NCBI GenBank assembly: GCA_008632985.1
Contig: QPGO01000012.1
Location: forward strand, 124,001 to 188,000
Length of the DNA stretch: 64,000 nucleotides
DNA from: Psammoneis japonica
Taxonomy: Eukaryota
Direction of reading: 5' to 3'
Notes under the pieces: generated by a model
What the model was told of the DNA's origin: nothing
Databases searched by the model: none
The model's input: the letters and a program-made list of their open reading frames with translations, nothing else
Program-made: the position numbers and the translations under genes
In this document: positions 3,813-40,729 of the stretch, piece after piece
Layout: each line of letters opens with the position of its first letter
How positions within the stretch are numbered: position 1 is the stretch's first letter

Positions 3813-3941
3813 ATCACAGTCGAGAGCACAGGGCAAGTTGCGGCTCACATTCTTTTGACAATCATGGCACTCATAATTCACAGCTCCAAAAATGACATTG
3901 CTCACGGCTGCTGCTTCTGCTCCATGACAGATGCGCTCTGT

Positions 3942-6900: not shown

Positions 6901-8852
6901 TGTGGTCCATGCAGGTTTGGATCAATGTTCACTGACATGTCACAAGCAACCCTGCAATCTTCATCATTGTCCGGTCTTTGCCTTCCTTCGGCTCCGGAAC
7001 TTTGGTCTGCATGAATGCATTTGGGATGTCCGTGCTCATCACATCACATGCTTCATCTGCATCTGTTGCCACAGTCATCAGGATTCCCTCCAATGATGCT
7101 GTGGGACTGGCTGACTCATCCTTGTCCAGCAAACTCTCTTGGTGGTTTTTGGTTGCACACCATTCTTCCTTTGATTCGACCATCTCTCTTCTCCGTTGGG
7201 AACATCAAGGTTGTCATTGCCTTTGCCCTTTCATTCTGAGTCATGTCTTTGACTGAAACTGGTGCAAAACACACTCTGTCGTGCAGCTGCTTCATTTCTT
7301 TCTCTGAGGCATCATGCCCTCTCTGGCCAAGTGCCTTGAGGCCCTCATGCAGCAGGTGCTGTTGAGCCAATGAGATTTCTTTTCCTGCTCATGGTTGGTC
7401 ATTGCATTTGCACATGAAAAATGCTGTCACCAACCCTGCTTTGCAGTTGTGTTCCACATCGTCCCCTGGATTGGGGCTTGCATTTGTTCGTAAATGGTGG
7501 CAGTGCCTGAGCTTCTTCAGCTCTTTCTTTTCTTGTTCCATTGCTGCCACTCCAGCAAAGTGAACTTTCTCAGTTCTCATGTCTTCATTCTTGGATTCTT
7601 TGTCCTGTGATGTTGTGTTGTAACTTCACCCTGATCTGGTCATTTGACCTTCTATTTCCATCGCTTCTTTCATTTCTTCTGCAATTTCTTTCATTTCTTG
7701 TCCAACATTGCATCTCCCAGGCCTTCTCTGGTTGTGTCACATTGATTCTTGAACCTCGCCAGACAGTCATCAAGTGACTCATGTTCTTGCTGTCTGACTT
7801 CAAGTGTGTTCTTCATTGCTCTTGTCAACATGTGAAATGGGTGACGACCTCTCCTTGAGTTGCATGTCAGGGATTGAATCAGCTTCAGCAGCTCAATCGG
7901 ATTGTCCCTCATGCCCTCAAAACTTGGGTCAGCCTTGACCCTCTGTCTCATCTGCCTTGTGCAGCAATCATCAAGAATCAATGCAAATGCCTTGCTCTTG
8001 TTCTCATTTAACTCTTCAATCTTTGAGCAGTGATCTGACAATTCCACCCTGCATGCACATTCAAATTCTTTGTCTTCTCATTCCTTCTTGGCATTGTTTC
8101 CCATTGAGACTTGTGGTTTTGGTGTCTCAGCTGCAAAGTCCTTGCATTTCATGTCTTCCAGTGATCGTGCTGGGTGCACTCCTTGATTGCATTCCTTCTG
8201 AATGTGATGCACAACCCTCACCTTGACTTCTTCAAATGCAGCATTGTGAGAGTTGCCACTCATTGATGAAGGATGGAACTTCATCTCATGTTTGTGGTTC
8301 CTGTTGCTGTGCACCTTCTTTCTTGAATTGGAAGACTTGCAACTCTTGTTGCCGTTGTCTCAACCATCACATCGGTTTTCATCCTTCTTGTTTGGATTGT
8401 CATTGGATCCTCTGCCACTCATTGTGCAGGCTGCCAAATGTCTTGTTGACTGTGGACTTGCAATGAGCTTTCATAAATTCGCTTGTGACTCTTTAGAGTG
8501 AATGTTGAACCAACGAGTTAATGGCAGCAAACGGGAATCTTGTGAAGCTTCCTCCGCTCTCATTGTGCTTGCCCTGGCTGCTTGTGTGGCCATGGTTTGC
8601 CTGTGAAGGTTGTTTGACACAAACTTCGATTGCGTTGACAGACAGTTGTTGTGGATGCTTCTCAGCACCATTGCCAATGGTTGACACACCAGATGATTCA
8701 CTCTAAAGAGTGAGAACATTGTTGCAAGAACGGAGAGATTGATGACGAGATGGGTGCAGTCATTGAATCTTCCACATCAGGAGCAAAACATCTTTCTTCT
8801 TCAAATCATTCATTCTGGGTCCTTTAATCCCCATGTTTCACTTGTTCCAACA
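3942..8852 (-). mobile_element. Ty1/Copia (CoDi-like) LTR retrotransposon 1, decayed; gag and RT-RNaseH remnants, protease/integrase apparently deleted
   Basis: 350 bp LTRs TGTTGAAC...TTCCAACA at 3942-4291 and 8503-8852; 5 bp TSD TCTGT; RT/RNH motifs (TDIPNAFMQT, FHVDDL, SKRQKLNTRSNMEAELVG, QDNKSAILLE). Confidence 0.93.
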
Positions 8853-10305
8853 TCTGTTGCAAAAAACAGGGGGCCAATCATGAAGGTTGCCAAGGCCACA
8901 AGGCTTCTTGTTGCCACCTGTCCATCCACATTGCAAGGTGCATGGATGGACACAGGAGATTGAAGGGCATTTTCCTCAAAGGACTCAGAACAAACATTTC
9001 TTGAGCAACATGCATGCATCAGCTGCAGAGGCTGCCCAGACATTGTTGGGAGCAGAGAGGCCACTCATGCAAGGAGAACAATGGCAGTGCTGCATGGTTT
9101 GGAAGCACATCAAAGTCATCCAGAATCCAAGGCTGGCAATGATGGCAGATCCACAGCATCAGGTAAAAGTCAATTGAGATGTCAATTTGTTGATTGACCT
9201 CACAAATGAGCTCCAGCAGCATGCCCTTGCGCAACTGGCATGAGTTTTTTGTGCAGTCGCATGCTCAAAAAAAGTGAGAAAGAGTTGGTGATGCAGTGTT
9301 GGCCCGAGTCCACACTGGCAAAAGATGGCATTGAGTGCCTGGAGGGTGGACATGAGACTGCAGGATGTCTGGCTTGGTGACTGCAGAGGACATGTCAGCA
9401 TCCAGTCAAATGCCACTCATTGGATGTTCCCAGAAAGCCACGGCTTGTCTGCTGCAAGAAGGCCAACTTCACATCAAAAGTCGGTGGCCATTTTAACCCA
9501 ACAACAGGGCACAGGCTGAAAAGTGGCATTTGAAGCATTGCATGCTCAGCTCTTGAAACAGCACAACAGCCCTGATGAGGGGCTGATGGATGCGCAAGTG
9601 TTTGTGAGGGGTGCTCCGATGCACACGTCAAAGCGATGCATCAAAGCACGTCACACAGGGGAGGCACGAGGAGCTGCCCTGCCAAGTTGGAGCTCCCTGC
9701 CATCAGAGCAATTGGAGATTGGAGGGTTTTGGCACCCATGGACACATGACAGAGACAAATGCTGCATTGTTGCTGAGGATGAGGACATTGTAACATGGGA
9801 GGACTGTTGTTTGCTCGCGAGTCACGGATGCACACTGTTGCGTTCGTGCTGGCCCTGCAAAATTCATGTTAACCCGGAGGTAAACTTTGATTATTAATCT
9901 TTATTCGACACTGTAGGTAATCAAATATACAACATTCCCTCCGACAACCCTGCAATAAAAACTGGCAACAGCACCATGCACCATGACGCATTTACTTACT
10001 GGTTTTACGAGTGCCCGTCGCCGCTGACTCATTCGTTGAGAAACGAGAATGCAATCATGCATTCTCGTAGAAGACATCAAAAGAGTTGGAAAGATCAACA
10101 ACGAGCAGAAACGATTTGAAATTTCCACGTGTCCCAGTCGTGAATCTCGCCGCGTGTCGTTTTTTGGAAAACGAAGTCTTTCGAAGATACAATTTGATTC
10201 TCTGTACTATACACTGAAAGGTCACCAGATGGTCTCATAATTTTCTCAACAGAGAAAACTGCATCAGAATTCGAGCAAGAGAAAACACGTAGAAGCACGT
10301 AAAGA

Positions 10306-11246: not shown

Positions 11247-13405
11247 CTAATCTATAGTATATACATACGCAGCTCCCGTCTGGTTGCCCTTTGCATGTGA
11301 CCCACTTTCGCCGACCCCAACTACGCGGCCGTCTGCAGACAAGGACACGGACCATCCAAATAAACCGTCTGGAGTATTACCAACCATATGTTCACCAACC
11401 TGACTCCATTCTGCGATGTCATCATCAAATTGATAGATCCCAACTCCACCAGCACCTGGTAAGTCATCAGTAACGTTAAACAAACGCTTTGCTACAGCCA
11501 TGACATTTCCGTCTGAGTTTAATGACACCGCATTCCCAAAGCGATCACCTGGCTGATCCGTGACAAGTGTTTGACCCCGTTGAGTCCATTTCGACGTCGC
11601 ACGGTCGTGCTCATAAACATACACTCTGCCTGTAATTATTTTGGTCCACCCTCCTCCAAGTTCACCCACCGCCATGACTAAGCCACTGTCATCAAGAGAA
11701 ACAGAGTATCCATACCGACCCTCCTTCAAATGCCCATTGATAGGATCACCCAAGAGTTCCCACAGTGACGATGCAGAGTTGTATTCGTACACAGAAACTT
11801 GGCCGGCATCCTGTTCATTGGAATCATGTTTTAGCGCCGAAATACCAACAATCGTACCCGAGCTGCTCAAGGAGACGGAATAACCAAGGCGATCTTTAGC
11901 AACTTGACCAATTATAGTCTGTCCAAGTTGTGTCCATGATGGTTTATCACGCTTGTATTGAAACAATCGTACAGAACCGGTGCCCTTGCCATTAATCGAT
12001 TTATCATATCGAGCTCCTACAGCAACAATGTCACCCACGTCCGAGAGAGAGACGGAGCAACCAAAATTCCCTAACGATTCTCTTTCAAGGTCGCTGCCAA
12101 GCTGAACCCACAGATCGGAGACAGTATTGTATTCATAAACTCGAACGTAACCCGATCGACTATTGTATGGTCCTCCCACAGCAAGTATCCTTCCGTCTCC
12201 GTTTAATGAGACAGCATGACCAAACTGGTCTTGACTGAATTCTCCCATTAAATCTTGACCTATCTGCGTCCAATTTTTCGTGGCCTCATTCCACCGAAAG
12301 ACGGAAACGTAGCCTGGTTCTTCGTGAGAAGCCACTTGGCTTCCTCCCACGGCCATGACACTCGCATCCCTTGACAACGAGATAGAGATACCAAATGAGT
12401 CAAACGGACCCGTTCCATTTAAAATTTGACCAAGCTGTTTCCATGCACCATTCTTTGGTAGAGGAACAAATGGAGCTGGTGGAGATGGCGTCGGAGAAGC
12501 CGTACTTGACGGATTCTGACTATTGCTGCCGTCATTGCTGGAAAATATTTCAACTGCAATCACAATGGTGCCAACCAACAACAGGACAATTCCCAATGCA
12601 ATTAAAGGTTTGCAGCGGCTTTTCGTTTTCCTAGCCTCATCATTTGCAACCTCTACATGAGCGTAAGGCATCTGTACTGACTGTCGAAGCCGAACGTTCT
12701 CCTCCTGTAGCTGAGCAACTAGCTCGTCGTCAGTTTGCTGCGCTGGTTGTGCTTCCAGAAGATCCGCGTCTCTATCAGGCCGGGTGGCGGGGGGTGATGA
12801 GGAATATGAATAAACAGTCAACAACTCATGAGAGAAAACGGAGATATCATCGTTTCCACGATGGCGTCGAACCGCTCCTTCACAGTTTACAGCGAAAGCA
12901 CCTGCAACGCGTGTACCATCCTGATCCTCGTCCTCCACTTCATTTTCGATGACCCTATGTTCCGTACGAACTTGACTTTCTTCTTCGTGTTTGACTGTAA
13001 ATGAAAGGTCTGGTGAGATTCGTCGACGATTAATCTCTTCCACTGTTCCTTCAGCCTCTACTTCTTCGACATGATGCGAGAGTGGATGCGTACGGCGTTG
13101 ACTTAGTGCACGAATCTTCCTCTTCGTCGTTGCCTTTGAACGGCTACGTCGATGCATGACATTAACTTCCCTCTTCTTCATTGTCTTCGCACGGTTGATA
13201 CGCTGAGGAAGTTCTTCAGTTGATTCTTCTTTCTGACAGACGATAACCCTGATTTCCTTTTTACTGCTTCAGCTTTTGCTGGTCGTTGCCGATAACGCCG
13301 TTTCTTCGTCACTTTAGACGTTGACACAGCTTCTTCGTCCGCGAATTCTTCTTCATTACTAAGACCACCCCAATCTAAACGGATATCTTTGTCATTGTAC
13401 GACAT
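11247..13405 (-). CDS. Single-pass membrane protein with C-terminal FG-GAP-like beta-propeller (paralogue A1)
   Basis: 644 aa ORF 11247-13181 with TM helix, Pro-rich stalk and about seven FGxSVSLSxDGxxxAVG repeats; upstream ORF 13178-13405 is probably joined via an indel or intron. Confidence 0.85.
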
Positions 13406-13612
13406 GGTGCGTACTTGTTGTCTTGAGAGGACACGAGAAGAACGGAGTGTGTCAGTGTGTGAAGATAGCTTTTTGAGGATTTTTGCGTGTCTTCCGTTCT
13501 GCAGGTTTTGAAATTTACGTGTTGTTTTTTGTCATGCACCGAATTACCTAGGAACCCTACTGTACTGTACCGTACGTAAAAAAGCGCGACCTCAAGACAT
13601 CATGAATACATT

Positions 13613-15529
13613 GTGTCCAAAATGTCAACCGAACCGAAAAGGCATTCGCGGCACTCGGCACTGGGTACTGGGTGCATTTTGCATTGTTGGATCTTTCACC
13701 TCTTTACGGCATGCACCGCTGTGCTACCTGATTCAGATTATCCAAGCAAATCATTGCGAAAGCTCTCATTTCAATGTGAATGTTGCGGTTGCAGTGGGGA
13801 GGATATGACGACTGAAGACATTCAGCGAAGGGTTTCAACAACCTTCGCAGGGGTTCTCCGTTCAGGTCAGGGGACGAGCGAAAACGGGAGTCTCATGTAC
13901 GAACATGAGGTTGGGACAGTTCGTTCCGATCCCTCACAACCGCCTCCTGGTTGTGTTGATGATGGCATGATCATTTTGGAAGCTCAACTAGCGGAATCCA
14001 CTGATGATGATTTAGTTACTCGTCTACAACAACAGAATACTTTTCTTCGGCAATCATTGTGTGTCACTCAAGCTGAAGTTTGTCGCGTCGCGGGACCGAT
14101 TCCCGATGTTCTAACGGCTGAAGAGGTGATGAACGATGATACGCATAAGGGGAAACACCGTCGCAAAAAACTAATCGTTGTGGGGCTTTCAATTTTAGTT
14201 GTTTCTGCAGTCGCGGTCATTGCTGTTGCATTGTCCTCGTCATCTAACAAGAACGGCCCAGCACCAACGACCAACTCTCCCTCGACAAAAAATCCAACAC
14301 CAAGGCCTCCGACGCTTCGTCCGACTCCGATCCCTATTCCTGTCATTCCTGGTAGCTGGGTATCAAATGGTCGAGTCTTACAAGGTAGAAGAATGAATGA
14401 TCTCTTTGGTACCGCCGTCTCTCTGTCACGCGACGCAAATGTCTTGGCGGTGGGGGCAACACAATTCAGCAATCCCGCTGGATATGTTTCAGTCTTTCAT
14501 CGATCGAATCAGAAAGTGCAGATGGGTCAAGATTTGATTGGTGAAGCTGCAGGTGACAATTTTGGCTGGTCGGTGTCGTTGAATGGCGATGGCATGATAC
14601 TAGCTGTTGGAACTAATCCGGAGGAGAGTGGTGGTAACAACAAACCTGGTTATGTTCGAGTGTTTGAATACAGTACCCTCACGGAGCGTTGGATACAGCT
14701 TGGTGGTGACATTGGTGGAGAAGATGTTGGTGATGGGTTCGGGCAGTCCGTTTCACTCTCTGAAGCTGGGGACATTCTCGCGGTAGGAGCCACTGGGGGG
14801 GACACGAACAATGGAAGCGATTCTGGATCGGTTCGGTTGTTTCAATACGGCAACGATACGTTGTCATGGAATCAGCTTGGGCAGGCACTGGTTGGCGAAG
14901 CGGCCGGTGATGCATTTGGTTGGTCAGTCTCCTTAAACAGAATGGGTACAATGGTGGGAATTGGGGCATACTCGAAACACTCGGTGCAAGGCATTGGTGG
15001 TCAAGTATCGGTGTATGAGTACAACGCTACTTCGTCCTTGTGGGAGCCGATAGGTGACCCGATTAACGGACCCGTTAGGTTTGGATATTCTGTTTCGCTG
15101 GATGACACTGGTTTGATCATGGCAGTAGGAGCAACTCGACAAAGAAATGAGAGGGTATTTGTTTATGAGCATGACCGTTCGACGTCAAAATGGACGCAAC
15201 GTGGTCAAACAATCGAAACTCATCATCAAGATGATCGCTTTGGCATTTCAGTATCATTGAGTGGAAATGGAAATGCGGTGGCGGTAGGATTAGATACACA
15301 TAGTGTCAACGGAGTAAAGTATGTGGGTCAAGTTGGAATATTCCAATACAACACAAGCACAAAGGTATGGAATCAGGTGGGAAATCGGATAAATGGCGAA
15401 TCTTATAATGGTCAATTTGGAATTTCTGTGGCTTTGTCAGCGAACGGAAGTGTCATCGGTGTTGGCGCACCAAAAACTGAAGGAACTGGAGTCAGGTCTG
15501 GATCTGCGTACGTTTTTGAGTTAAGTTAG
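13613..15529 (+). CDS. FG-GAP-like beta-propeller membrane protein (paralogue B1), divergent to A1
   Basis: 638 aa ORF with the same architecture; true start may be 13622 or 13805. Confidence 0.85.
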   Translation: MSKMSTEPKRHSRHSALGTGCILHCWIFHLFTACTAVLPDSDYPSKSLRKLSFQCECCGCSGEDMTTEDIQRRVSTTFAGVLRSGQGTSENGSLMYEHEVGTVRSDPSQPPPGCVDDGMIILEAQLAESTDDDLVTRLQQQNTFLRQSLCVTQAEVCRVAGPIPDVLTAEEVMNDDTHKGKHRRKKLIVVGLSILVVSAVAVIAVALSSSSNKNGPAPTTNSPSTKNPTPRPPTLRPTPIPIPVIPGSWVSNGRVLQGRRMNDLFGTAVSLSRDANVLAVGATQFSNPAGYVSVFHRSNQKVQMGQDLIGEAAGDNFGWSVSLNGDGMILAVGTNPEESGGNNKPGYVRVFEYSTLTERWIQLGGDIGGEDVGDGFGQSVSLSEAGDILAVGATGGDTNNGSDSGSVRLFQYGNDTLSWNQLGQALVGEAAGDAFGWSVSLNRMGTMVGIGAYSKHSVQGIGGQVSVYEYNATSSLWEPIGDPINGPVRFGYSVSLDDTGLIMAVGATRQRNERVFVYEHDRSTSKWTQRGQTIETHHQDDRFGISVSLSGNGNAVAVGLDTHSVNGVKYVGQVGIFQYNTSTKVWNQVGNRINGESYNGQFGISVALSANGSVIGVGAPKTEGTGVRSGSAYVFELS

Positions 15530-15548
15530 CTACAAGTTGTGAATCTTC

Positions 15549-17440
15549 TCTAGTCTATAGAATATACATACGCAGCTCCCGTCTTGTTGCCCTTTGCATG
15601 TGACCCACTTTCGCCGACCCCAACTACGCGTCCATTTGCGGACAAGGACACGGACCATCCAAATAAACCGTCTGGAGTATTACCAACCATATATTCACCA
15701 ACCTGACTCCATTCTGCGATGTCATCATCAAATTGATAGATCCCAACCCCCCAGCTCCTGGTATGTCAGTCACATTCAGCCAACGCCTTGCTAGAGCCAT
15801 TACATTTCCATCTGCATTCAATGACACCGCATTCCCAAAGCGATCTCCTGGCTGATCAGTCACGAGTGTTTGGCCTCGTTGCGTCCATTTCGACGTTGCG
15901 CGATCATGCTCATAAACATACACTCCGCCTTTTATTATTTTGGTGGTCCCTCCTCCTAATTCACCAACTGCCATGACTTAACCACTGTCGTCGAGAGAAA
16001 CAGAGTACCCATACCGACCATCCTTCACTCGTCCATTGATTGGTTCACCCAAGAGATCCCTGAGTGATGTTGCCGGATCGTATTCGTATACAGAGACTTG
16101 GCCTGACACCTGTTTACCAGCATTCAGAGCTGAAGCTCCAACAATCTTGCCTGAGCTACTCAAGGAGACCGAATATCCAAGGCGATCTTTTGCAACTTGA
16201 CCATTTATTGTCTGTCCAAGTTGTGTCCATATCGACTCATCACGGTTGTATTGAAACATTCGAACAGAACCTGTACCTTTGCCATTGCTTGTCTTTTCAA
16301 ATCGAGTTCCGACGGCAACAATGTCTCCGACATCCGAGAGAGACACGGAGTAACCAAAGCCACTTGAGGAATCTCTCTCAAGGTCGCTTCCCAACTGGAT
16401 CCACCGATCGGTGAAAGTATCATATTCATAAACTCGAACATGTCCCGAATCACTATTTTGCGGTGCCCCCACAGCGAGTATCATCCCGTTATAGCTTAAT
16501 GACACAGTGTGACCAAACTGATCTTGACTGGATTCTCCAACTAAATCTTGACCCATGGGCAACCACTCCCTTGTGGCTTCATTCCAACGAAACACGGAAA
16601 CGTAGCCTGGTGCTTCGTCAGAAGCCGCCTGGCTGCCTCCAACGGCTATGACACTCGCATCTCGTGACAGTGAGATAGAAGTGCCGAATAATCCAAACGG
16701 TCCCTTTCCGTTCACAACTGGTCCAAGCTGTTGCCATGGACGGTTCTTTGGTAGAGGAACATATGGAGCAGGTGGTGATGGCGTCGGAGAAACCGTACTA
16801 GCCGGATTCTGATTGTTGCCGCTGTCGCTATTGGACAACATGTCAACTGCAATAACAATTGCACCAACTATTAAGAGTACAATTCCGAATGCAATCCAAA
16901 GTCTGCAGCGGCTTTTCGTTTTTCTATCCTCATCATTTGCAACCTCCACATGAGCGTAAGGCATTCGTACAGACTGTCGAAGCCGGACATTCTCCTCCCG
17001 TAGATGAGCAACTAGCTCGTCATCCGATGGCTGTGCTGGTTGTGCTTCCAGAAGATCGACGTTTCTATCGGCACGGGAATGGAGTGGCGGCGTGGAATCC
17101 GAATGAACAGTTACCAACTCATGAGAGAAAACGGAGATGTCATCGTTTCCGCGCTGGAATCGAACCTCTCCTTCACGACTCACAGCGAAAGCACCAGCAA
17201 CCCGTGTATCACCCTGATCCTCTTCCTCCTCTTCATTTTCGATGACGATATGTTCAGTACGAACGTGGCTTTCTCCTTCTTCTTCTTGTTTGATTGTAAA
17301 CGAAAAGTCTGATGACATTTGTCGACGAAGAATCTCTTCCACTGTTTCTTCAACCTCTTCTTCTTTTTCTTCGACATGTTGCAACAGTGGATGTGTACGG
17401 CGTTTATTCATCGCACGAATCTTCCTCTTCGTAGTTGACT
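15549..17440 (-). pseudogene. FG-GAP propeller paralogue A2; premature stop at ~15978, frameshift at ~15750, 5' end deleted
   Basis: Colinear with 11247-13140; GGC TTA has become GGT TAA. Confidence 0.8.
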
Positions 17441-18149
17441 TCGAGAGACCTGGTTATGTTCGAGTATTTGAATACAGTACCCTCACGGAAGATTGGGTTC
17501 AACTTGGCACTGACATTGCCGGAGAAGATGATGGTGATGGCTTCGGGCAGTCCGTTTCTCTGTCAGATGCTGGTGACATTCTCGCGGTAGGAGCCACTGG
17601 GGTTGACACGAGCAATGGAAACGATTCTGGATCGGTTCGATTGTTTCAATACGACCGAGTCACATCATCATGGATCCAGCTTGGACAGACTCTGATTGGC
17701 AAATCTGATGAGGATGCGTTTGGCTGGTCTGTCTCCCTGAACAGAGCGGGTACGGTGGTCGGAATCGGGGCGTACTTGAGACGCGATAGCCAAGTATCTG
17801 TCTATGAATTCAATGCTGCATTGAAGGCGTGGGAACCAGTGGGTGACCCTCTTTCCGGAAGAGATGACTTTGGGATCTCTGTTTCTCTAGATGACACTGG
17901 TTTAATCATAGCAGTAGAAGCAAGTCGAAGGGATGAGAGGGTGTTGGTTTATGAATACGACCGTTCGACAATGAAGTGGACGCAGCGCGGTCAACCAATT
18001 GTGACGAATCAGCTTGACGATCAATTCGGTAAGTCGGTGTCATTGAGCGGAAGAGGAAATGTCGTGGCAATTGGAAGCGAGAGACACAATATTAACGGCT
18101 TTAAAAACGTGGGTCAAGTTGGAATCTTTCAATACGACACAAGCACACG

Positions 18150-21100
18150 TGTTTAAATACTCAAAAGCAGATCAGTAGCGGTAGCTAGTGATGACTAGTA
18201 AGTATTGGGGCGATCAAATAGGCGTTACAATAACAGCTGTAGTAAAATTGTGAGGATGTGAGAGGCTCCTCGTCTCTCATTTAAGACTGATGTTTATGAG
18301 TCATTTTTGGGACAGTGAGTCATAATGTAATGACGTATGAAGTATGATATCTTCACACTCCCTCTCATTTTGATCTCATGCATCTCGAAAATGAAGGTTT
18401 GACGCACTTTGCGCGCGAATCCACTTTTAAAGTATTCCAAACACCTACCAACCCATTACTTTCGGTCGTAACCAAAGCAGAACGTCCAGATTGACCGCTT
18501 TAGTTAGAAAATCGGCCAATTGTGCAGTAGTGTCGATAGAGTGGATTGAGATCTCCTTTCGACTGACACAGTCACGGAAATGGTGCAGCTTCACGTTGAG
18601 GTGCTTGGCACGCGGTCTGTACTTATGTACCTTCGCCATTTCCAGCGCGCCGCTGTTGTCCTCAAAAACTTTGCAGTGCATCTTCGCCGTCGTCGAGTTG
18701 ATTGGACACCCTCGCGACTTCAGTTCCTTCAACATTTCCATCATAGGGATGGCCTCTCGCAAGGCATGCGACAATCCGGTGTGTTCACTTTCGGCACTGG
18801 ACAACGCTGTTTCAGTCTGCAGCTGAGACTTCCAAAGGATCGGACAACCAGCGCAAGTGATGAGATGCCCGTGACGGGATCTTGCGGTGTCTCTGTCGCT
18901 CGCAGCTTCCTTTCGATCCCAATTGCCACTGAAGTCGGCGTCTACGTACACCTCCAAATCCTTTTTGGAATCTGGTTTCAGAATTGCACCTTTGTCTCTC
19001 GTGGCGTGCAGATGTCTGCCTGGCCACCGCATGGCCTCGCCATGTTCTACCTTCGGGTCCGCAGTGAATCTCGCGCACTGGTGCGCAATGCACGCGATGT
19101 CGCTTCGGGTGCATTTCTCCAAGCAATTCAGCTTGCCGATGATCGACCTGCAATTGAAGGAATTGTCAAATGGTCTTGAGTCTGAATGCCTGGATGGGAG
19201 CTTGGACGAAGCTGCAGGTGTGTCTTTTCCGATGACACTCGGTTTGTCAAGTCGCAAGTCTTTCAGAATCTGGTCGATCAGGTGGGGTTGTGTCAGGTGT
19301 GTCATTCCATCCAACTTTCTGGTGATGTTCATGCCAAGGAAATCTTGAATGTCGCCTTCCACCGTGACATCTAACTTTGCTTGCTTGATTTCCTCTATGA
19401 TCTTGTTGATCTCGGATTCATCAGGGCCTGCGAGCAAAGAATCATCCGCGCAGAGAAGGCAAATCGTTTTTCCATGATAAAACACACACTCGTCGACCTT
19501 GGATTGCTCGAAACCCAGCTTGTTGACCAACTTGTCCACGAGATGCTTGCTCCAGACTCGCCCTGCCTGCTTCTGCCCGTGTGCACTCCGATGCAAGCGC
19601 AGAACATGATCCTTGGTGTTGGTGCCTTCGAGCTCAAATCCGGGCGGAATCTCCATGTAGAGATCCTTTTCGACCAGTGCTTGAGGAAAAGCGAGGACAC
19701 AATCCAGCTGCTTTGAATGCCACCCATGCACTCCCACTGAGGCAAGCAGCAGCTGCATTGAATTTCGTGATGCAACCGGCGCATGTGTCTCATCGTAGTC
19801 TTTTCCTTTTCTCATCCTCGAGCCGTCAATGTCAAGTCGCGCTTTCCACTTCTTCACCTTTCGGGTGTGCATGTCTCGCTTTCGCTTCATTTGCCACACT
19901 GCAGGTGGTGCTTTTCTGTCTTGTTTCACCTGTGATCTTGGAATGATGGAGCAGCCTTCCATTTTCCATTTGATCCTTCACCTCTTTTTGCATCGCCTTG
20001 AGGAACTCCTTGCGGTCCGGTTCTTTCATGGCTTGGTGCATGCACATGGTGTCAGGATCTGCTGATGCTTTGCAGGCAAGGAGGGGATTTGCGACTTCTT
20101 CTTGGAGGGCTTGCGAGTCTCGAGGATGCAGTGCGGCCAAGCACAGCAGTTCTCCTTCGACGCCTCCTTCAGTGTCTTTCTTGATCTCAGTCTCCATGGA
20201 CTCAATCAATCTGCTGACCGGTTGGCTCTTGCGCCCTGATCGTGTCACTTTTGGTTCAGCATGACCGTCTCGTGCTTGATCAGACTCGCCCTCATGTGGA
20301 GGTGCTTCTAGAGATTCAGTCCTTTTGGACGCGTTGGCCTTGTTGTCATTGGGCTCTCGGCGCATCTCTCGTTTGGACACCGATTGGCTGTCGGTTGCTG
20401 CAGTGTCGCCATCTTGTGGCCGTGTTAGTTGGTCAGCCCAACGAATGGTTCTTCGTTTCTTGCCTTGCTCCACTCCCTCTGAAGCTCGTGCGCGCTTCTT
20501 CTTGGGACGATCCGGAGCACTTGTGGGAGCCGTTTTGGTCTCGCCACTCTTCTTGGTTCCTTTTGTCTCCCTCTGAGCAACGAACCCGGCTTTTATTTGC
20601 CACAGAGAATCGCAAGTGTCTTGCTTCAGCGCATGGAATGATGGATCAAATTTTGCGTGGAACTGTGGACTTGCCAGTGCCGACTCTCGGTCGAGTGCCA
20701 GGGCCACGTTCTTGCCATGTTGTGGGCTTCGGCCTGAGTGTGTTCCAACCCTTGATCTGTCTTTCCATTTGTGGTGCGGCAGACCTGATTGCAATGCGGA
20801 GTCCAATGCGCACACTGGGCAACCAAATGGTTTCCAGTGCTTTGGATTGGTGGCAACTTTCGTGTTGGAAAACAGCTGGAGTGGGCTTGATCGGTCTTTG
20901 TGTTGGAGGTTGGGTGCATGATTGATGGCATCACAGGCCATGCGAATCGCGCAGGGTCATAAATTTGCCGCAATGCACTTCTTCCAGCGGCTGTTGGCAT
21001 GGATCAACATTGTTCGGGCGAGCTCTTGGAGCTCTCGGATCCGTCGCTCCGCCGTGCCATTTTGGTGATGAGCGCCTACGGCAGCGAACGTCAGTTGTTG

Positions 21101-23769
21101 CCCTTGTCTCCTGCACGCATGCACCCAGTCGTTGGCCTTGAATGTTCCGTTGTCAGCATGGTGAGCCTGTCACACCACAACTCTTTGCATGCAACTCGAA
21201 AGCTTGTTTTCCCTCCAACGTTTCAGCTGCCGTTGCTGTCTTTTGCAGATGAACGCAACCCAATTTGGAGCACTGGTCAACATGGACTGTGGCGTGCTTG
21301 CACCGTTTTGTGGTCAAGAAGCCCGTCATTTGTGCGATCAGACCCGGTGTCGGAGACACCAATTGATCCACTGAGACAATTTGGCCTGGTTTTGTTGGAG
21401 CTTCTATCTCGGCATTCGTCGTTCCGTGCCTTGTCGCGCCATTTTCTCTTGGTCGCCTTTGTGCACAGGCATGCCGAGCAAGCAGGTGCGTTGCACTTTG
21501 CGAGCCGTCTTGGCAGAATGCCCATCTTTGCCATCCATTGCAACTTTGTGAAGCTGATGTGCCCAAATTGTTGGCGGCACTTGAGGAGCAGCGCCGCATC
21601 CGTGTCTGGCTGTCTGTCTTCTTCATCTTCCACCACTCGTGGCGGTGGAGCAGTCGGTGCTCCCTCTGAGTTTGGGACGCTGTTCGTCACTCCCTCTGAG
21701 CTGCCACTGCTTGTTGGCCCATTTGCATCAAACGTTGCTCCCAGTGGGTGGACGCGCTGATCGGCAGCCAACCCTGACTCTTGCGCCACCTCCTGGGGTT
21801 CAGGTTGCCATTCCTTGGCAATGCTTTTTGCATCGCATTGGACATCCGTCTCTTCCTCGTCCTCGTCATCACTGATGACTGCTGCATCTTGTGTGAGGAC
21901 AGGATCGTCTGCTTCTTTCGCTGGATCGATGTCCGCGTCGGCGCAAAATGCTTCGAACTTCTGATGACCCGGTGCCAAGCGGAAGGTGGCTACGTTCGTA
22001 GTCTCGCTCAACGGCACAGTCAGTCGATGCTTTCGTTGGTTCCAGAACAGTGTGACCTCTTTCGAGTTTGTCTCTGATCCAGTTCCTTCGATCGGCTTGT
22101 TGTCTCTCAGTGCCTTTGCCCAGTGTTGGGGACTCAGCAGGCGGACCTTGCCATCAGGTGTGTGGAATGAGTTGGGGATTACGAACTTGTGTGTCTTTCC
22201 CTCATCGTCGCTCCATCTCCATGGCAGGGTGCCAACTTTCACACCTGTGGTTCGAGAGCCACCGAATCCCTTGATGGTTCTTCTTGTGTCTCTCAGCTCG
22301 CCAATGAAGTCTTCTGTTTGGTCGGATGTGCAACCTGCACATCTGTCATCCACTCCGACTGGCCCAGAATCGGTGTCAAACGTGACGGTGTGCTCTTTTA
22401 TGTGTTTCCCTTTGGCTTGCATGGCCACCATGGCTGGCGCCATAATCGAGCCCCATGTTCGCCTCTTCTGTCTGGGTTTCACCTTTGTTGCGGCACGTTG
22501 GATCTTGATTGTGTTTCTTCAACCACGTGGGCTTCCCGTCTTTCTGAGCACCTTGAGACGCATCGTGGTCTTTTCCCTTGTTTCCCGTCTTCTTGTGGGA
22601 TTTCTTGCTGAGGGCCTCCACTTGAGCTTGGAGAGCCAAGATCTTTTCTTCAGATGCACTGGGGGCATTCCATGGCGATTTCTGAAGCAGGTTCTTGCAC
22701 TTGTTGCCCGCAAGGTTCACAAGTTGCGACGCCGACATGTCCTCGCCCTCTTCACACTGTTCTTGCTTACGCTCGATGCACTTGACAAAAACTTTGTCGG
22801 AAGCAGCCAGGTGCCCCTTGAAGAGGTTCGCAAGTGGGTCCTCAGTGGTTTCGCCTCGTGACTTAAGGGCGGCAAGCAACAATGCCACGCACTGGTTGAA
22901 CTTCAAGATGTCGTGACCGATCGTTGGGAGACAGAGGTCGAGTTGACTCAATTTCGTTCGGATCGCACTCGTCGTGGCATTCGCATCGAGGTGGGATTCC
23001 CTGACAATGATCTTGAGAAGGAGATTTCCGGACATGCGATCTCCGATCTTGCACTCTGATTCCCAGATCCTCACTTTGTCCTTTCCGGCTTTCGACATGG
23101 AGCTCATCAGGCAGCGACACGCTAGATGGGTGTCTTGCGCTGCGCGACTCTCATTGCCGATGTAGGATTCTTCAAAGCCCCGGATCCTCTCCAGGTCTGT
23201 CTGACCACAGTCGGTCAACAGATTGGACCTCTCGGATTCCAGGATGTCTTCGTGGTCTTCTGGGATCATGAATGTTCCGTTCTCATCATTCCACCCAAAC
23301 TCTCTGGCTCTGTCTTCCAAGTTCTTGAGGAACTGGCACAGGTCTCCTGGTTCACAATCGAATGATTCCTCATCCAGCGGCTTGGCAGCTTGCTCAAAAA
23401 GCTTGCAACCCGCACTCGAACGACAATCGATGACCGTGGTGAACGCTTGTGCCGGAGCCAATGCAAGTGGGACATCTTCGGGAACATCTCCTGGCTCCGG
23501 TCCAGAAACGGACAAAGCCTCTGAAGAGGCATCAGACATGTCACTTAGCGCAGAGGAAGCGTGTTTAAATGCTCAAAAGCAGATCAGCAGCGGTGGCCAG
23601 TGATGACCAGCAAGCATTGGGGCGATCAAACAGGCATTGCAACAACAGCTGTAGTGAAATTGTGAGGATGTGAGAGGCTCCTCGTCTCTCATTTAAGACT
23701 GATGTTTGTGAGTCATTTTTGGGACAGTGAGTCACAATGTGATGACGCACGAAGCATGACATCTTCACA
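18150..23769 (-). mobile_element. Ty1/Copia (CoDi-like) LTR retrotransposon 2, full gag-PR-IN-RT-RNH order, frameshifted and hypermutated
   Basis: 208 bp LTRs TG...CA at 18150-18357 and 23562-23769; TSD CACACG; PPT GAGAGGGAG at 18358-18366; gag ATG at 23539; integrase (VSVDQLVSPTPG) and RT/RNH (VYVDADFSG, FEDNSGALEMA, QLADFLTK) motifs. Confidence 0.96.
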
Positions 23770-23781
23770 CACACGGGAATG

Positions 23782-26700
23782 GGGTGTCCCAGCACGCGCG
23801 CTGGTTGGTTGGTTGGTTGGTTGGCTCGTGGAGGGAATCCTGAGGGAATCCTGAGGGAATTCTGCCAAATTTGTCTCGCTCGCGGGAGGATGCCTCGCAC
23901 AGTGTGGTTCGTAACTCGGACTTTTCAGTCTTACGGACCAGCCGCAGCCGCCACATGAAAACACACCAAAAAAACCAACCGCAGGGGCTACAGTAAAAAT
24001 CAGCACTCACATTCAGTCCCGGATTTCTCGTTTTTGTCGCTCCAGAAAATGATAAAAAAAAGAGCTGCGAGGTTTTGCCCAGCACCAACTGCAACATTTA
24101 TTGTGTGCACGCGTCCTGCTTCGACCTGCTTGACGAATGTAAATGTTCAAAACAAACATTTGTGTGAGAGAAAGCGAACTATGTCAGATTTGTCGTAGTG
24201 CCACCAACAAGCTGCCGGCACATGACGATCTGCCACCAAACTCACAAAATTTCTGGAAGGCGCAACGGTGGTGACTGAGGCCCGTTTTGATCAACCATGA
24301 GTCGTCAAGCCGCTGTCGGCGTCACTGCCAGGCGTCAAGCCACCGTTGCCCCGCCAGGTGGAGGAGACGAAGAACGATCCGCACGCCAACGTCTCGCAAG
24401 AAGCAACTCGTCTTCTTCTGTCAGCAGCATCGAGAGTTTGCTAAATGCGCCAAGAGTGTTCAACTCACCTCCACCATTCACTGACACACGTTGGTCCGAC
24501 GTTGACACGGATGATGAGTCTGAAGAAGGGCACAATCCTCCACCCGTTGGGGATCCGGGTGTTTGCAGCAGCGAAGACAGAGAGCGCGACAACGAGGCCC
24601 TCAAATGTCGTTGCCCAATCGCTGGGCGATTTGCCACCAGAAAGCCCGTCAAATGGCTGGGTCAAGTGTGCGAAGAGCAACAGCTTGAGCAGCATTTTCA
24701 GGATTGTCGCACGCGAAGGGGGTTGGGTGATTTTGTAATGAATCCGCTCACTGGTGGACAAGTGCTTTCTTCGATCCATCCCATTCGCCATGACGACACG
24801 GATCTGTGGAAAAACCAAGCCAAGATTGCCAAAAAAGGTCACATGTTGCGCAAGTGTCGTCGTGAAAAATGGCAACGCGAACAAACCGAGGGAGCACGTT
24901 TGCAAGCGGCGGATGCGGCTTCAACTGCAACGCTGACAGACGGCGCATCTGACACCACTGCTGCCGATGCCGCTGCTGCCGGCACTCCTCATCGCAACGG
25001 CACTCGAGGCATGCCCCGACTCGGTGATTTTCTTTCAAATGATGCAGGAAAGCGGGCTTTGACTGCCACACTTAGAGAAGCTAAGATGACCGGCTGGGAC
25101 CAATCGCTGGGGTACGGTCGACGCACTGCTTGGCTCACCGTCCGTCATCCTGTTTGGATCAACCGAGCACAACGTGGCATTTTGTCTCAGTGAGCAATGT
25201 GTTGAATGCATTGTCATTTCCGTTGCACCATTGCCGTGTACAATGTCTAATGTGTTGTTTGTTTTTATTTTTGCATGATGCAGATTTCACCCATTCAGCA
25301 TTGCTCTCTTGCGTCGCAAGCTGAGTGCTGCTGAAGCTTGAATCAAGGCGGATTTCCACCAACAGGGAGCGCACAGCACCGATGAAAGTGGCGCCATGGG
25401 GGAAAGTGAGTTTCCCCAATGTGCAACACTTTTTTGTGAGCATTTCTCCTGGGTGGAGAATCGTCCTGACGGGCCAGCAGCAACAAGAGCGCGTCAGGAT
25501 GCCAGGCGCCGTGTTGAAAGGAGTGCCATTGGTGCCATGGCGCCTCTTGGTGGGAGTTATCAGACTCTCCGCACCGAGCACTCTCGTTCCAATCTTGGTC
25601 CAAACCAAGATGTTGCAAGCAGGAGCACATCATCGGATCAAACCGAGGGGACGGAAAATGTTGTTGCTGCCACCACTCCTGTGGATGCTGGTGCTGGTGC
25701 TGCGAGAGCGAGTGGTCAGCGACGTGTCATTCGTCGTGAGAGTGTGCCATTGCCCATGGGCGTTGAGAATGCCATGATGGCATCTACACAAAATCTTCAG
25801 ATGGGATTTGTGGAACTAGCAAGAGCGATTTCAAGCCCCCGTCAGCCACCTCCTCGCTCCATTTCTGACATCCGCACCGAATTTGTTCGGACGCGTCGTG
25901 CTCTGAGGGAGGCAGAGGACGACAATGATGAAAGGTCTGTTGGCTTTCTCAACAGGATGTTGGACTCCCTTGACAGGGAAATGACGCAGTCTTTTTCTGG
26001 ATCTGTCGGCAGTGAGCGCGGTGAAAATGCCGATGCCGAAAATGTGGAGCAGTTTCGTTCGAGTCGCATGTGGTCGATTTGTCACTGTTGTGTGCACTGG
26101 TTCTGGAGGATTGAATCCTCCAGTGTTCATCATGCCTTTGTAAGCCGAGTCCATTCACAGCAATTGGTCTCAGATAAAGAATCGATTGTCCGGTTTCTCA
26201 CTGGTGTTCTTTCAGGAGGCGGTCGGTTGCGTGTTGAGGTCGTCACGCATTCACGCCATCCCGCAAGGTGGCTTGTGGTTGGTCCGAAATGGAGCTGAAG
26301 CACCGCAAACATAAAGAAAAGAACTTGGTCAATGACATCATTACTTGAAAGGATGTCATCGCTACCCCAGAAAACCAAAGCAATAACAGCTGCAATTCGG
26401 GCAATCAATTCCTGCGTCGTCGTAAAGTTAAAATAAAAGAGACGTCTCAACAGCAGAACGGTGAGGACATCACGTTGAGACAGGGCATCATGCCGATGCC
26501 TCCAGTTCGTACGCCGACGTATATTGCGATGAATGATGTGATCGTCAGCATCTTCTCGGTGTCGACGCCGATAGCGCCTTTGCCGAGGCATACGGTACGT
26601 AAGAGGTAACGAAAACAACGCCGTTACGAATGTTTGATATGTGATTCTTTTTTTTGTGACTATCGAGGTACTGCATTAAAATTATTCATATATATTATAC

Positions 26701-27010
26701 CTTGAATCATGTAATGAGAAAAGGTTGTTATGATACTTCTTAAAATGTCGATGTTATATATTGTAATATATATGCCTTTGTGACCTTGACATATTCTGTG
26801 TACAAGACCGGATCGTATACCACGGGACTTAACGGGACTGAGATGTTTTGACAAATCGGAAGCTCGAAACCACCGAGGGAAGATCTTACTTTGCACGGGC
26901 ATCGATCAGATGGTCACACAGCTTCACAAACTCACGAACAGAAACGGAATCTTCGCGCGCGCCGCGCCCAACCAACCAACCAACCAACCAGCGCGCGTGC
27001 TAGGACACCC
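23782..27010. mobile_element. TIR DNA transposon, PIF/Harbinger-ISL2EU-like, internally deleted; accessory ORF on + (24297-~26050, probable intron ~25190-25320) and truncated transposase-like ORF on - (26591-~26050)
   Basis: ~42 bp TIRs GGGTGTCC[C/T]AGCACGCGCGC followed by (TGGT)n; 2 bp TSD TG; two convergent ORFs; NRTIDSLSE..C.EWTRLTK resembles a Harbinger-type transposase N-terminus. Confidence 0.75.
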
Positions 27011-27371
27011 TGGAATCAGGTGGGCAATCGCATAAATGGCGAGGCTTATAATGATCGATTTGGATCTGCTGTGTCCTTGTCGGCGAACGGAACTGTCGTA
27101 GGAGTTGGTGCACCTCGAAGCAACAGAAACGGCTGGTCGTCAGGATCTGCCTATGTTTTCACTTTAAGCTAGCTACGGCGGATCGCTTTTGGTCGTAATT
27201 CCTCTTCCTCATAGCCTTATCAAATGCGGGTTTCCCTTTTACTCTCTTCCCAGTTTTTCGGGTCATATCGAGGCTATCGTAGACATACACAGTATTTTTT
27301 GAATTGCTATTACCTTTTTCGACTCGGGGTCTACTTATTTTTCTCCGTTGCTTCAATCACGCCCACCAAAC

Positions 27372-29400: not shown

Positions 29401-29557
29401 AATTTGTTCGTTGCTTGACTCGACGGGGATACACATACTCCAGCAAACGCTTTCTGTGCACCATATTGTTGTCGACTGTGAGATACAAAAAAGGATAAGT
29501 TCGTAAAGCGGCCAGCAAGGAATAATCATCGCGACTTGCGACACTTAGGCCCTACCG

Positions 29558-31997
29558 TAGGGCCCTGCTATGGGAGGGGTTTTGCATTCGATCTTACGTG
29601 CCACGACAGACGCTTCATTTATCCCACATGTGTGCCATGGACGCGGACTGCATTGGTTCAACATCTTCCTTTTGTGCCTTGTGCTGCTGACAGCAACTGT
29701 GACAATCAAACAAGAACGTGTTCGTTGACGCTGTGCACCGGCCCGAGTTCGACCTTGTTGATGACAAGCCGATGAAAAGTGTTGCAATCGACACATCTGT
29801 GTCCCACTCCCCACTCTCTCCATCTCTCACAAGATTCTCTCGCTGATCCTCCTGCAGCAAGGCAAAAGTCCATTCATTGCCAAAGGTGACTGTGGCCCAA
29901 GCTGCTAAACTGTTGGTGCAGCAATGTGAGAGACCATGCCAACACAATGGCATTGAAGCTCTGCACACATGTGATGGTGGTGCGTGCAATCCTCCACTCT
30001 CAAATGGCTGGTGAGTGGATGCCAGAAAAGCGAAAGGCTGGGGGGGGGGGGGGGGGCAGGCCATTGAGGACAGAGTGTCATTCCATTCTCAGAATCAGCC
30101 AGAGAACAAGATCAACTTGAGATGCCAACAAACAGAAGAGTGTCATTTGTCATTGAGGTGACACCATGCTTTTGTCAAGAAGGTGCTTCGCCAAGAAGGG
30201 GTGCCTTGTGCTCAAGCTGCTGTTTTGAAGCTGAAGCACATTGTGTGTGTGGAGATGCAAAATTTTGGGATGGTTGGCTGCATTGAATCTCAGGATGGTG
30301 ATGTGCATGGCTGCAATTGCAAGAAATGGATCACAAACTTGAATTTTTTGAACAGCAACTGCTGCTTCTTGGTGGCTTCTCCAATTGATGCTCTCATGAG
30401 TGTGCTGGCGGGGGTCACTAGAAGGGTTGCGAGCATGTTGTTTCTGCTTTTTGGGGCTGCAACCACAGTGCAAAGCCACACAGTGGATGGACAGCCACTG
30501 CAGAAGAGAAAAAGCACCTTGAGGACATTGGGGCACCAATTGCAAGTGGCTGCAAAAAGCTCACGAAGCTGAGATGATGGAGCAGGGCAGCTTGCAAAAG
30601 GCTCACGTTGAAGCTTTTGGACTGGGGGGTGCAGCTCTTACCACCAACATGAGCCAAACAGTTGCTGGAGCTGCAGCATGCTTGATTTGATTTTGACATG
30701 GGTTTTCATGCCACAGTGGAGTGTTGTGTTTTGCCACCCCAAAACCACTTGCTTTGGCTGGAACAAGAAGAAGGGGAGGCAGCCTCACTCTGGTGCGGCA
30801 GCACCAGCTCCCCATCAGAGCCCTGCAGTGCAAAGGAGGTGTGCATTGTCAACCACTTTTGGCTGTCAGTGCAGCCACTTTGTCAAAACCCAGTGCAAAA
30901 GAAAATGACAGAGTTTTCTCCATCAATGACACAGACTCAAAAACAGCCCAAACACAACGCATCACTCCAGTGCTGTGCACACCACCAGGGGGCATCTCAG
31001 GGCAGTGGCAACATGTTGTCACATCAGTGGCAGTGGTGCTTTGTTCATTGCAGTGTGATTTTCATGCAATTGTTTGCTTTGTGACATGTGGCAGGTTTGC
31101 TGAAATCGCGTGTGTCCCTGACAGAGTGAAAGCTCTCTGGCCAAACGTGTGTTTGCTTTCATGCTGTGTGCAAGCACCAGTGCCAGGTTCCACAGTCCAA
31201 ACAGTTTAACTCATGCTTTTTTAAAAAAAAAGTGAAGAGTTGTTCCTCGTGAACATTGTTTTTGCATCGGTTGCCAGAGGAATGAAGCAAAGCAGATCTT
31301 TGAGCGATTCGCAAGCGAATCGCGCGATTTCTCATTTCTACCTACGCACAGACAGACCGTCCAGTTTTTGGAGTGGCGTACTTTCAAAAATTCGGTGCGC
31401 ATACCTGATCTACACAAAATATACGTACGTAAAAATGTACTACAAAATTCGTAGAGATGTTTATTTGAATTCACTTCACACACAAACATCACGGCAACGA
31501 CGCCGCGACATCGGCAATGGACGCACACAACAACGACAGCGGACTGGGAGGTTATGATGCACCGAGACAACAACTGATATGATAAGAAATGGATATCAAT
31601 GTCAAATGACAATGATCGAGTTGTTTTGGGAGCTGGTTGAGCCATTGGTGACGAAGGGTTTTTGGCACGTACAACTTGGTACTGAAATCACGTAGAGGTT
31701 TTGGCCGCGGTGGGACTGTTGTTTTTCACTTTTTTTGGGGTGTATTTTGTGTTTTCTCGGTCGATCGCATTGATGAAGCACTGAAATGAGCACGCGACAA
31801 CAGATTTTGACGAAAAGTTGGATTTTCATTCATTATGGAGGATTAGCACGGGGTTTTTAACACGGTGAAGCACGGGGGGACGATTTTTTCACCAGATTTG
31901 CAAGATCCTGTATCCCATCCAATTCGCATGCGTAATATTAGTGGATTGATGTATTTTTTATACGCAAGAAGCGCAATAACGTCGATATAGGGCCCTA
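29558..31997 (+). mobile_element. Decayed DNA transposon, possibly hAT-like
   Basis: Ends TAGGGCCCT...AGGGCCCTA; TA-depleted core ~29620-31200; STSSPSEPCS weakly resembles the hAT dimerisation motif; no clean TSD. Confidence 0.4.
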
Positions 31998-32246
31998 CCC
32001 GACATGATAGACTTCCCGTGCTGTTGTCGTAATGAAGTGAAATCTTGTTGTGTTCGGTGCGTAGAGTCTAGTACTATTTGTCCGTATGTAGACGAGTACT
32101 GCGCACCGCACTTTTGGAAAGTACGCCACTCCATTCAGAACTTTTTCGCGTCCCAACATGACCGGCCATGAAGCATGCTGGCCGTCAGACATTGTAAAGT
32201 CGAACAATAGTTACGTGTTTTGTGTTGCCCATCATCCACCTACGTC

Positions 32247-40126: not shown

Positions 40127-40729
40127 ATATTTTTATGGAGCTGTTTGCATAAAGCGGTACATCTACAGTGTAGCATGTCAACGAAGCCTACTAGAGACCA
40201 TCGGAATCCATCAATGACCTGCTAGTAGCAATGGCACAGTGACGGCGCATGTTGAACATTTCACCCACGAACGTCGTAAAATCTATCTAAAGTAGTTAAT
40301 GTAATTGTTCTACCGACACCACTAGTAGCAACGGTTTCGGTATCATCTAGTAGAGGTCAGCCCTATCAGAGGCGTTGAAGCGTTGTCCTCCAGCCTGAGT
40401 TAACATGCTCTCAGTGAGGCGAAGGCGGCTTCCTGATCGGACAATGTGGCCGTACTCTTCGTACTCGAAGAGTTCGTTCTCTTTCTCCATTTGACGGATT
40501 CTGGCGACATCCGCCTCCACGACCTTGCCATCCGCATGCATAAGTACCACACTACCAAGACCAGTGAATAAATCCACAGTGTAATCGACCTGTGATCCAA
40601 CCTTGACACCGGTTTTGAGGTAAACAATCGATGGGAGCTCCTTGATAACGTCGAACCCAGGGGTGCTCTTGACTTTTCCACGCGAAAATGAGACTAGGAT
40701 AACTTCTTGGGCCTGAAGCTTTGAAGGGA
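40073..40729 (-). repeat. Direct duplicate of the 3' end and downstream flank of the ATP-grasp gene (55168-55809)
   Basis: QEVILVSFSRGKVKSTPGFDVIKELP...SDRADLY* is nearly identical in both places. Confidence 0.93.

Follow-up and report, generated by a model that had tools for sequence, protein, structure and literature searches.

Results

Two mobile elements in one FG-GAP gene share a TpA-depleted block

The window analysed here is a stretch of 64 kb on contig QPGO01000012.1 (C12) of the Psammoneis japonica assembly (91.4 Mb, 597 contigs). Among named relatives, the best matches to one of its genes (62644-63690) come from diatoms such as Attheya, Ditylum and Seminavis, at 72-74%. In the window, a plus-strand FG-GAP gene (FG-GAP_2, E = 1.1e-15) is interrupted by two insertions that lie 14 bp apart. 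The 5' part of the gene (17218-18150) forms a flank of normal TA content, the remainder is found at 23768-23781 and from 27011 to about 27170, and the paralogue at 14644-15471 can be aligned across the insertion site. The left insertion (18151-23767, minus strand) is a Ty1/Copia-type LTR retrotransposon and has the features of this group, namely a reverse transcriptase of the RVT_2 type (E = 9.6e-38) after the integrase region, TG...CA LTRs and a target duplication; a match to gag_pre-integrase upstream of RVT_2 on the minus strand is weak and stays below the cut-off (E = 0.0013). A genome search yielded three full-length and two partial siblings at 92-96%. The target duplication measures 6 bp in all four full copies, and the window copy lacks about 690 bp that the siblings have. 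Its outer, 3' LTR (18151-18357, minus strand), next to which there is a purine tract on the minus strand, is unmutated and has 20 TA; the inner, 5' LTR (23563-23767, minus strand) is mutated and has three.

The right insertion (23782-27010) is a DNA transposon with terminal inverted repeats (TIRs) of 43 bp and a 2-bp target duplication, the length found in all three copies having both ends; relative to the C25 copy it lacks about 1.4 kb. Its TIRs differ, the inner one reading CCCAGC and the outer one CCTAGC, just as the sequence-only reading of this DNA had said. A resemblance to the PIF/Harbinger superfamily (DDE_Tnp_4 transposase, Myb-like ORF and 3-bp target duplication) is tentative; none of the ORFs scanned, three in the window and five in the C25 copy, matched a Pfam family at the cut-off.

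TA-poor blocks were called with a two-state hidden Markov model over 484 kb of C12. The 39 blocks make up 56.6% of this sequence, the smallest measuring 826 bp, and contain 4.7 TA/kb compared with 38.9 outside; even in gene-rich flanks the observed/expected ratio of TA is only 0.55. Seven TA-poor blocks appear in the window in a 500-bp scan. All window genes that were annotated lie outside blocks, with annotation covering part of the blocks, and all blocks whose content could be identified are transposon-derived.

One block, 18629-26312, extends over both insertions. TA loss had been described earlier as unbroken across the two unrelated elements (about 18600-26250), and this is borne out by 50 TA (6.5 TA/kb) in the block as against 414.5 ± 15.2 expected from 200 base shuffles (minimum 377); the observed/expected ratios are 0.12 for TA, 1.51 for CA and 1.34 for TG. 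The outer LTR and the outer 700 bp or so of the DNA transposon do retain their TAs, as had also been stated: there are 32 in 18151-18630, of which 18358-18630 is the part of the LTR element's interior that is spared, followed by 24 in 18631-23540, 13 in 23541-24200, 13 in 24201-26311 and 44 in 26312-27010, where the TIR element is spared along its right margin. At the element junction a slight residual bump is seen (13 of the 50 TA in 8.6% of the block, p = 2e-4, uncorrected for the high native TA content of the LTR).

TA was lost after insertion and independently in each copy

The two LTRs of the retrotransposon differ at 19 bases, all of them in TA/CA/TG/CG slots. Seventeen TA are private to the outer LTR, none to the inner one, and three are common. 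Among the element copies, 430 of 493 variable columns fall into such slots. The tyrosine of the reverse transcriptase catalytic motif has become cysteine in two copies and histidine in two, and 76 slots are discordant between copies solely as CA versus TG; TA was therefore lost, independently in each copy and after insertion. The direction of change is thus TA to TG or CA. The same insertion, present in two contigs, has 37 differences in 1977 bases of the element versus three mismatches in 3 kb of flank.

In a strand-specific fit to heavily hit copies of a miniature element (MITE; 341 site observations), the hazards were 1.02 for TAC, 1.14 for TAT and 0.41 for both TAA and TAG, and the context model surpassed a flat rate by 22.5 log-likelihood units. 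The mutator prefers TAY. As far as the sequence goes, the altered base may be the A or the opposite T, since both fit. One Logan contig matches the TA-poor stretch 30314-31398 with no difference over 1087 bases, and 413 of 564 listed changes between Logan contigs and the window are transitions; these contigs possibly stem from the source sample and thus do not count as independent.

The front of TA loss is narrow and CpG decay follows it

The edge of the block takes the form of a front, no wider than about 300 bp, and not of a long fade. The mutator had been said to be fading at the edges of its domains, and this wording does not hold: a logistic fit puts the midpoint of the left edge 460-500 bp into the element, with the front at about 18610-18650 and a scale of some 60 bp; a sharp step does nearly as well (1.2 log-likelihood units worse), and a broad fade is rejected, scales of at least 250 bp being worse by 6 units or more. 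Of the informative slots, 30/32 in the first 480 bp of the left margin have TA, versus 12/61 in the following 2 kb. On the right, the front falls within 26290-26312. The TA/CG profile against boundaries, suggested earlier as a check, thus gives fronts that lie within the elements, some 480 and 700 bp from the outer ends; at 31200-32000, on the other hand, the step coincides with an element end. Fronts are not fixed in place, as illustrated by the older block 3652-9870, which reaches 290 bp beyond its own LTR, and by the C68 and C79 copies described below.

CpG decays in the same blocks in which TA is lost, more slowly and beginning slightly further in. The CpG step, a proxy for 5mC at CG, lies a median of 110 bp inward of the TA step and is inward at 34 of 41 edges of CpG-poor blocks (p = 5e-5), with double hits that create new CG as a possible cause of displacement; at 33 of the 41 edges the two steps are at most 500 bp apart. 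For the tandem repeat at the edge of block 3652-9870 (two units of 101 bp, 3607-3808) a gradient had been claimed at 3612-3812; a polarity is there, but it is weaker than stated, with 3 vs 1 private TA and 3 vs 0 private CG.

Identical sequences are hit or spared according to their neighbourhood

Copies of the same LTR and of the same transposon end elsewhere in the genome were compared. All five LTR copies adjoining TA-normal DNA retain 15-20 TA and all five adjoining TA-poor DNA retain 3-6 (n = 10, genome search; p = 0.005). The association persists (p = 0.009) without C471, an allelic copy that has its insertion site in common with C211. For the LTR of C79, the TA-normal flank is a 300-bp island only. 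A rule by which the promoter-bearing 5' LTR is spared is ruled out because sparing falls on the 3' LTR in the window copy and on the 5' LTR in the siblings.

At the right margin of the TIR element, siblings retain 3/17 (C25), 4/26 (C91) and 9/32 (C68) of the aligned window TAs. Several cases run counter to a simple flank rule. The C68 end is mostly stripped although it faces TA-rich DNA. C79 contains an internal TA island behind a mutated 3' LTR, with 22 of 30 slots kept at 600-1200 bp; we read it as the gap between the element's own core and the front of its neighbour, and exchange between copies is a possible alternative source. C211 and C56 have retained tracts in common that may likewise derive from exchange between copies, and in two older repeat pairs a stripped LTR lies less than 300 bp from the block edge.

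A MITE of 766 bp at 31369-32134 is young and unmutated and adjoins the old block 29621-31339; it has more than 30 relatives at 74-99%. Joining 29548-32000 into a single TIR element was rejected, since its GGGCCC motifs resemble small insertion footprints and the right part is a separate MITE. The gradient reported for 31200-32000 is accordingly a step at the end of this MITE, that is, TA content does step exactly at an element boundary here, the case named earlier as contrary to the proposal, because the MITE is young. Of 44 matches to this MITE, 34 loci were taken, those in the window or to the older block being set aside along with small fragments, and gave 35 alignments; the young set comprises 23 near-full-length copies with less than 3% other substitutions. 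With poor flanks defined as having <20 TA/kb, 1/209 TA were lost in copies with no poor flank (five copies), 231/532 with one (13 copies) and 162/188 with two (five copies); a cut-off of 15 TA/kb gives 32/290, 235/492 and 127/147. CG was lost more slowly, at 2/334, 29/569 and 49/179. A second MITE family was found via the TIR of 51758-52007, an isolated short MITE with 18 TA. It comprises 17 loci, one of them the reference; the nine copies past the filters lost 0/29, 32/193 and 22/27 TA with zero, one and two poor flanks.

TA loss in the MITE copies is correlated with other substitutions (rho = 0.75), and age is therefore confounded in the flank-class totals; besides position, the age of a copy also matters for TA loss. 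Polarity within copies counts for more than these totals because each copy is its own age control. In 14 of 15 partly mutated copies the losses are skewed to the poorer flank, whichever end that is (p = 5e-4; at least three TA lost, at most 80% lost, flanks apart by at least 10 TA/kb, L140 dropped because it occupies the same site as L138). In left halves, 92/131 TA were lost with the left flank poor versus 20/95 with the right flank poor; in right halves the figures are 60/156 and 63/110. Mutation thus enters a fresh insertion on the side that adjoins an existing block. The window MITE 31369-32134 and L134 are counter-cases, as they touch a poor flank and have lost no TA. Short MITEs had been called spared, which holds for isolated or recent copies and fails otherwise. 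The contention that position rather than the individual element decides is supported as regards the placement of mutations: an identical LTR, transposon end or MITE is hit or spared by its neighbourhood.

Gene duplicates are spared

Homology was assessed on host duplicates. The duplicate at 40074-40729 (40073-40729 in the sequence-only reading) and its partner at 55168-55809 are 90.6% identical, have 29 TA in common and 5 vs 2 private, and 24 of their 46 changes are transversions. An EGF tandem array (41496-42150, minus strand) about 450 bp from block 42594-48719 has 2-4 TA in each of five inner units. Comparison of the FG-GAP and HSP20 paralogues in the window gave no one-sided TA loss; the FG-GAP paralogues, being 75-85% alike, were discarded as a strong homology control. 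That this duplicate, the FG-GAP paralogues and the EGF array are spared, as proposed before, agrees with these counts.

A stronger control is provided by tandem copies of a kinase-like gene at C12:331-367 kb (2.3-2.9 kb, 95-97% identity; Pkinase E = 2.8e-7, just below the cut-off). Their gene bodies have 57 TA in common and 3 vs 4 private (2256 columns, 57 changes). In one copy, which has received a 430-bp MITE near its stop codon, the adjacent block covers the 3' end of the gene; there, 20 TA have been lost that the sister retains, versus one in reverse. Pairing alone as the means of targeting is rejected, since these long linked duplicates are spared. The earlier denial of a role for homology is supported as to the sites of mutation, but elements or homology may still seed the blocks. 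The control is weakened by the fact that coding duplicates are rarely RIPed in Neurospora too (PMC7296669).

Discussion

Three properties of the process follow directly from the comparison of copies: TA is converted to TG or CA, each copy is altered by separate events, and position determines the outcome. Entry is from the existing block and the front is a few hundred bases wide. Taken together, we consider it probable that, once an element has inserted, TpA steps are converted to TpG/CpA in regional blocks with borders unrelated to the ends of elements, and that these blocks are silenced, CpG-methylated chromatin recruiting a TpA-specific editor, likely an adenine deaminase. The DNA-editing activity likely tracks silenced chromatin and not sequence identity. 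Methylated heterochromatin is the likely nature of the TA-poor domain because CpG decay is co-located with TA loss and because transposons are marked in Phaeodactylum, where CG methylation on transposons overlaps H3K9me2/3 and H3K27me3 (PMC9998398). A new insertion would arrive unmarked. An element larger than about 1-1.5 kb would found a silent core of its own and retain unmutated margins of about 0.5-0.7 kb where it borders host DNA; isolated short elements would seed nothing, and fronts might creep outward with time or upon breakage of a neighbouring gene.

Homology could act as the seed and chromatin as the means of spreading, with long repeats being recognised by pairing or small RNAs and mutation leaking a few hundred bases as in RIP. 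This differs from the reading just given in seeding only, the edge rule being the same. It would fit the transposon origin of the identified blocks and the weakness of the gene-duplicate control noted above (coding duplicates being rarely RIPed). RIP itself leaks into the DNA that flanks duplicates and supposedly works through the heterochromatin pathway (PMC7296669), and an RID-related DNMT4 is described from diatoms (PMC9998398), to which can be added the 27 DNA-methylase matches (PF00145) in this genome, their types unsorted. We nevertheless hold homology seeding to be unlikely, for the LTRs form a direct repeat 5.4 kb apart that was hit 17:0, on one side only, neither the linked 2.3-2.9 kb duplicates (95-97%) nor MITE copies at 98% have been hit, and the NCLDV target in Bigelowiella is reported as single-copy (bioRxiv 10.64898/2026.01.13.699255). 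Protection instead of targeting would mean that the TpA lesion is widespread but that transcribed or open chromatin and its vicinity are kept free of it by repair or exclusion, the spared margins marking the reach of active genes. The margins do face host DNA, disruption of the kinase-like gene shifted the front over its 3' end, and TA is reduced to an observed/expected ratio of 0.55 even in gene-rich flanks. What makes protection quite unlikely is that the right margin faces a promoterless gene remnant, that TA changes in host duplicates are symmetric and background-like, and that the Bigelowiella process is reported to be limited to two regions and on or off among lines (bioRxiv 10.64898/2026.01.13.699255).

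Could age and order of insertion suffice, whole elements being mutated uniformly and spared pieces being later insertions or converted tracts? This accounts fully for 31369-32134, and the correlation of TA loss with other divergence (rho 0.75) as well as the tracts common to copies, which suggest exchange, are in its favour. Yet the two LTRs of one element are of equal age and differ 17:0, both fronts lie inside elements, and polarity within MITE copies follows the flank in 14/15, which largely refutes a history of age alone; we rate it as very improbable. A sequencing or assembly artefact caused by modified bases or collapsed repeats is scarcely credible: the same TA has been resolved as CA or TG independently at 76 discordant slots, and a Logan contig, possibly from the source sample, is identical over 1087 bases at 30314-31398. 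Collapse may blur single copies, as no Logan contig crosses the whole element and summed depth is several-fold above that of the flanks.

Returning to a chromatin-recruited editor, nine matches to the deaminase family PF00383 were found, of which seven, on six loci, were retrieved. Six deaminase ORFs were scanned for a chromatin-reader domain and none was detected in them. Two of the candidates are, by their motifs, presumably tRNA-adenosine-deaminase-like. TadA has a sequence preference that favours the adenine deaminase reading. What argues for an adenine deaminase is thus the TpA/TAY spectrum, the preference of TadA and the proposal made for Bigelowiella; a modified thymine may instead be the lesion. 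A more far-reaching version is conceivable and is put forward tentatively: in diatoms, a heterochromatin reader might bring a TAY-preferring deaminase to silent domains without homology search, the activity invading insertions from neighbouring blocks and being held a few nucleosomes off active genes, as part of the same ancient system as in Bigelowiella.

The TpA mutator itself is already published. In Bigelowiella natans, integrated NCLDV and virophage DNA undergoes TpA hypermutation; an ADAT2-like enzyme is proposed, the choice of target is left open, and the largest target is single-copy (Mettrop et al., bioRxiv 10.64898/2026.01.13.699255). This is the only published case of TpA hypermutation that we found. 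Rates were measured in vegetative lines at about 1000-fold and are reported to be on or off between lines. TpA is converted to TpG/CpA on both strands in both organisms, foreign or mobile DNA regions are affected, and TpA-poor clusters rich in CpA and TpG result. The spectrum (A>G / T>C at TpA) is recovered here in 17/19 LTR differences and 430/493 columns, and the confinement to foreign or mobile DNA in the 39 blocks with 4.7 vs 38.9 TA/kb, part of them annotated. In contrast to Bigelowiella, the host studied here is a stramenopile, transposons of several classes are hit, 57% of 484 kb is affected near saturation, and the record is a fossil one only. The words 'diatom', 'edge' and 'boundar' do not occur in the main text of the preprint (bioRxiv 10.64898/2026.01.13.699255).

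The process has in common with RIP in Neurospora that repeats undergo regional, dinucleotide-biased transition hypermutation which reaches a few hundred bases into neighbours and largely spares genes (PMC7296669); such leakage is evident here from the MITE polarity (14/15) and from the host-like gene end hit next to a block. It is unlike RIP in that T:A is changed to C:G, opposite to the C>T of RIP, in that a linked repeat can have one partner left unmutated (LTR 17:0) and in that long linked duplicates are spared. DNMT5-dependent CG methylation in Phaeodactylum likewise forms transposon-centred silent domains in a diatom, and CpG decay and TA loss share blocks here; methylation predicts CpG to TpG/CpA only, however, and TpA loss is not mentioned in the portion considered (PMC9998398). 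A search for TpA loss or hypermutation of transposons in diatoms, with subscription papers mostly outside its reach, returned no report; the part of PMC12344493 used here mentions neither TpA nor Bigelowiella, and no paper on diatom small RNAs was among the best ten matches listed.

The present analysis contributes a polarity test at the level of families, a control by linked duplicates and the width of the front. Sibling copies provide a testable rule, position over sequence with entry from the neighbouring block and a narrow front. The defence is set apart from RIP, and exact coordinates are named at which chromatin borders should lie. If a chromatin-guided editor were indeed at work, TpA loss would record heterochromatin borders and their shifts at base level, as a kind of fossil map. 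Dating by LTR divergence is invalid in this genome because all 19 differences between the LTRs reside in TA/CG slots.

Target sites and sequence changes of the inserted elements

At least four FG-GAP beta-propeller genes form a cluster (window 11247-18156 and 27011-27170), the last gene of which is split by both the Copia-type LTR retrotransposon (18151-23767, minus strand) and the TIR element, a DNA transposon (23782-27010). The target duplication generated by LTR retrotransposons usually comprises 4-5 bp; that of the Copia-type element comprises 6 bp in all four full-length copies, namely the one in the window (18145-18150 and 23768-23773) and its siblings on contigs C211, C79 and C56. The TIR element is bordered by a 2-bp duplication (23780-23781 and 27011-27012), which reads TG in the window copy and in the copy on C91 and TA in that on C68. 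Since the TG in the window is part of a tryptophan codon of the host gene, it was not made by the TpA-changing mutator. In the window copy, some 1.4 kb of the likely transposase region is absent.

Comparison of the Copia-type element in the window with its siblings revealed rare TA-to-CG double conversions as well as some CA/TG-to-CG changes. Taken together, these substitutions suggest that A>G changes also arise outside TpA, through a slower activity.

Surroundings of the TA-poor blocks

MITE copies of two families (loci L129-L162 and L111-L127) are frequently positioned at block borders. Among the 23 young copies of one family, 12-13 are TA-poor on exactly one side, as are 7 of 9 copies of the other, which may reflect either insertion bias or seeding of blocks by the MITEs. 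In a tandem array on contig C12 (G000:C12:331053-366546, L084-L087), copies of an ~830-aa kinase-like gene alternate with a duplicated TA-poor block, and one of the gene copies is broken by a 430-bp MITE that has an 8-bp duplication.

Short GGGCCC-centred inserts between TA recur in the window (29548-29570 and 31988-31996) and in the flank of the MITE locus L118; they resemble the footprints that a TA-targeting transposon leaves on excision. Two mutually related low-complexity stretches (51540-51760 and 42400-42520) are rich in CTAG/TAGAG; one of the two stretches is TA-rich and lies at the edge of the block at 42594-48719. On contig C79, a 491-aa frame (L163:519-1991) combines a zinc deaminase domain with a DIOX_N/2OG-Fe(II) oxygenase and probably encodes a purine-salvage enzyme.
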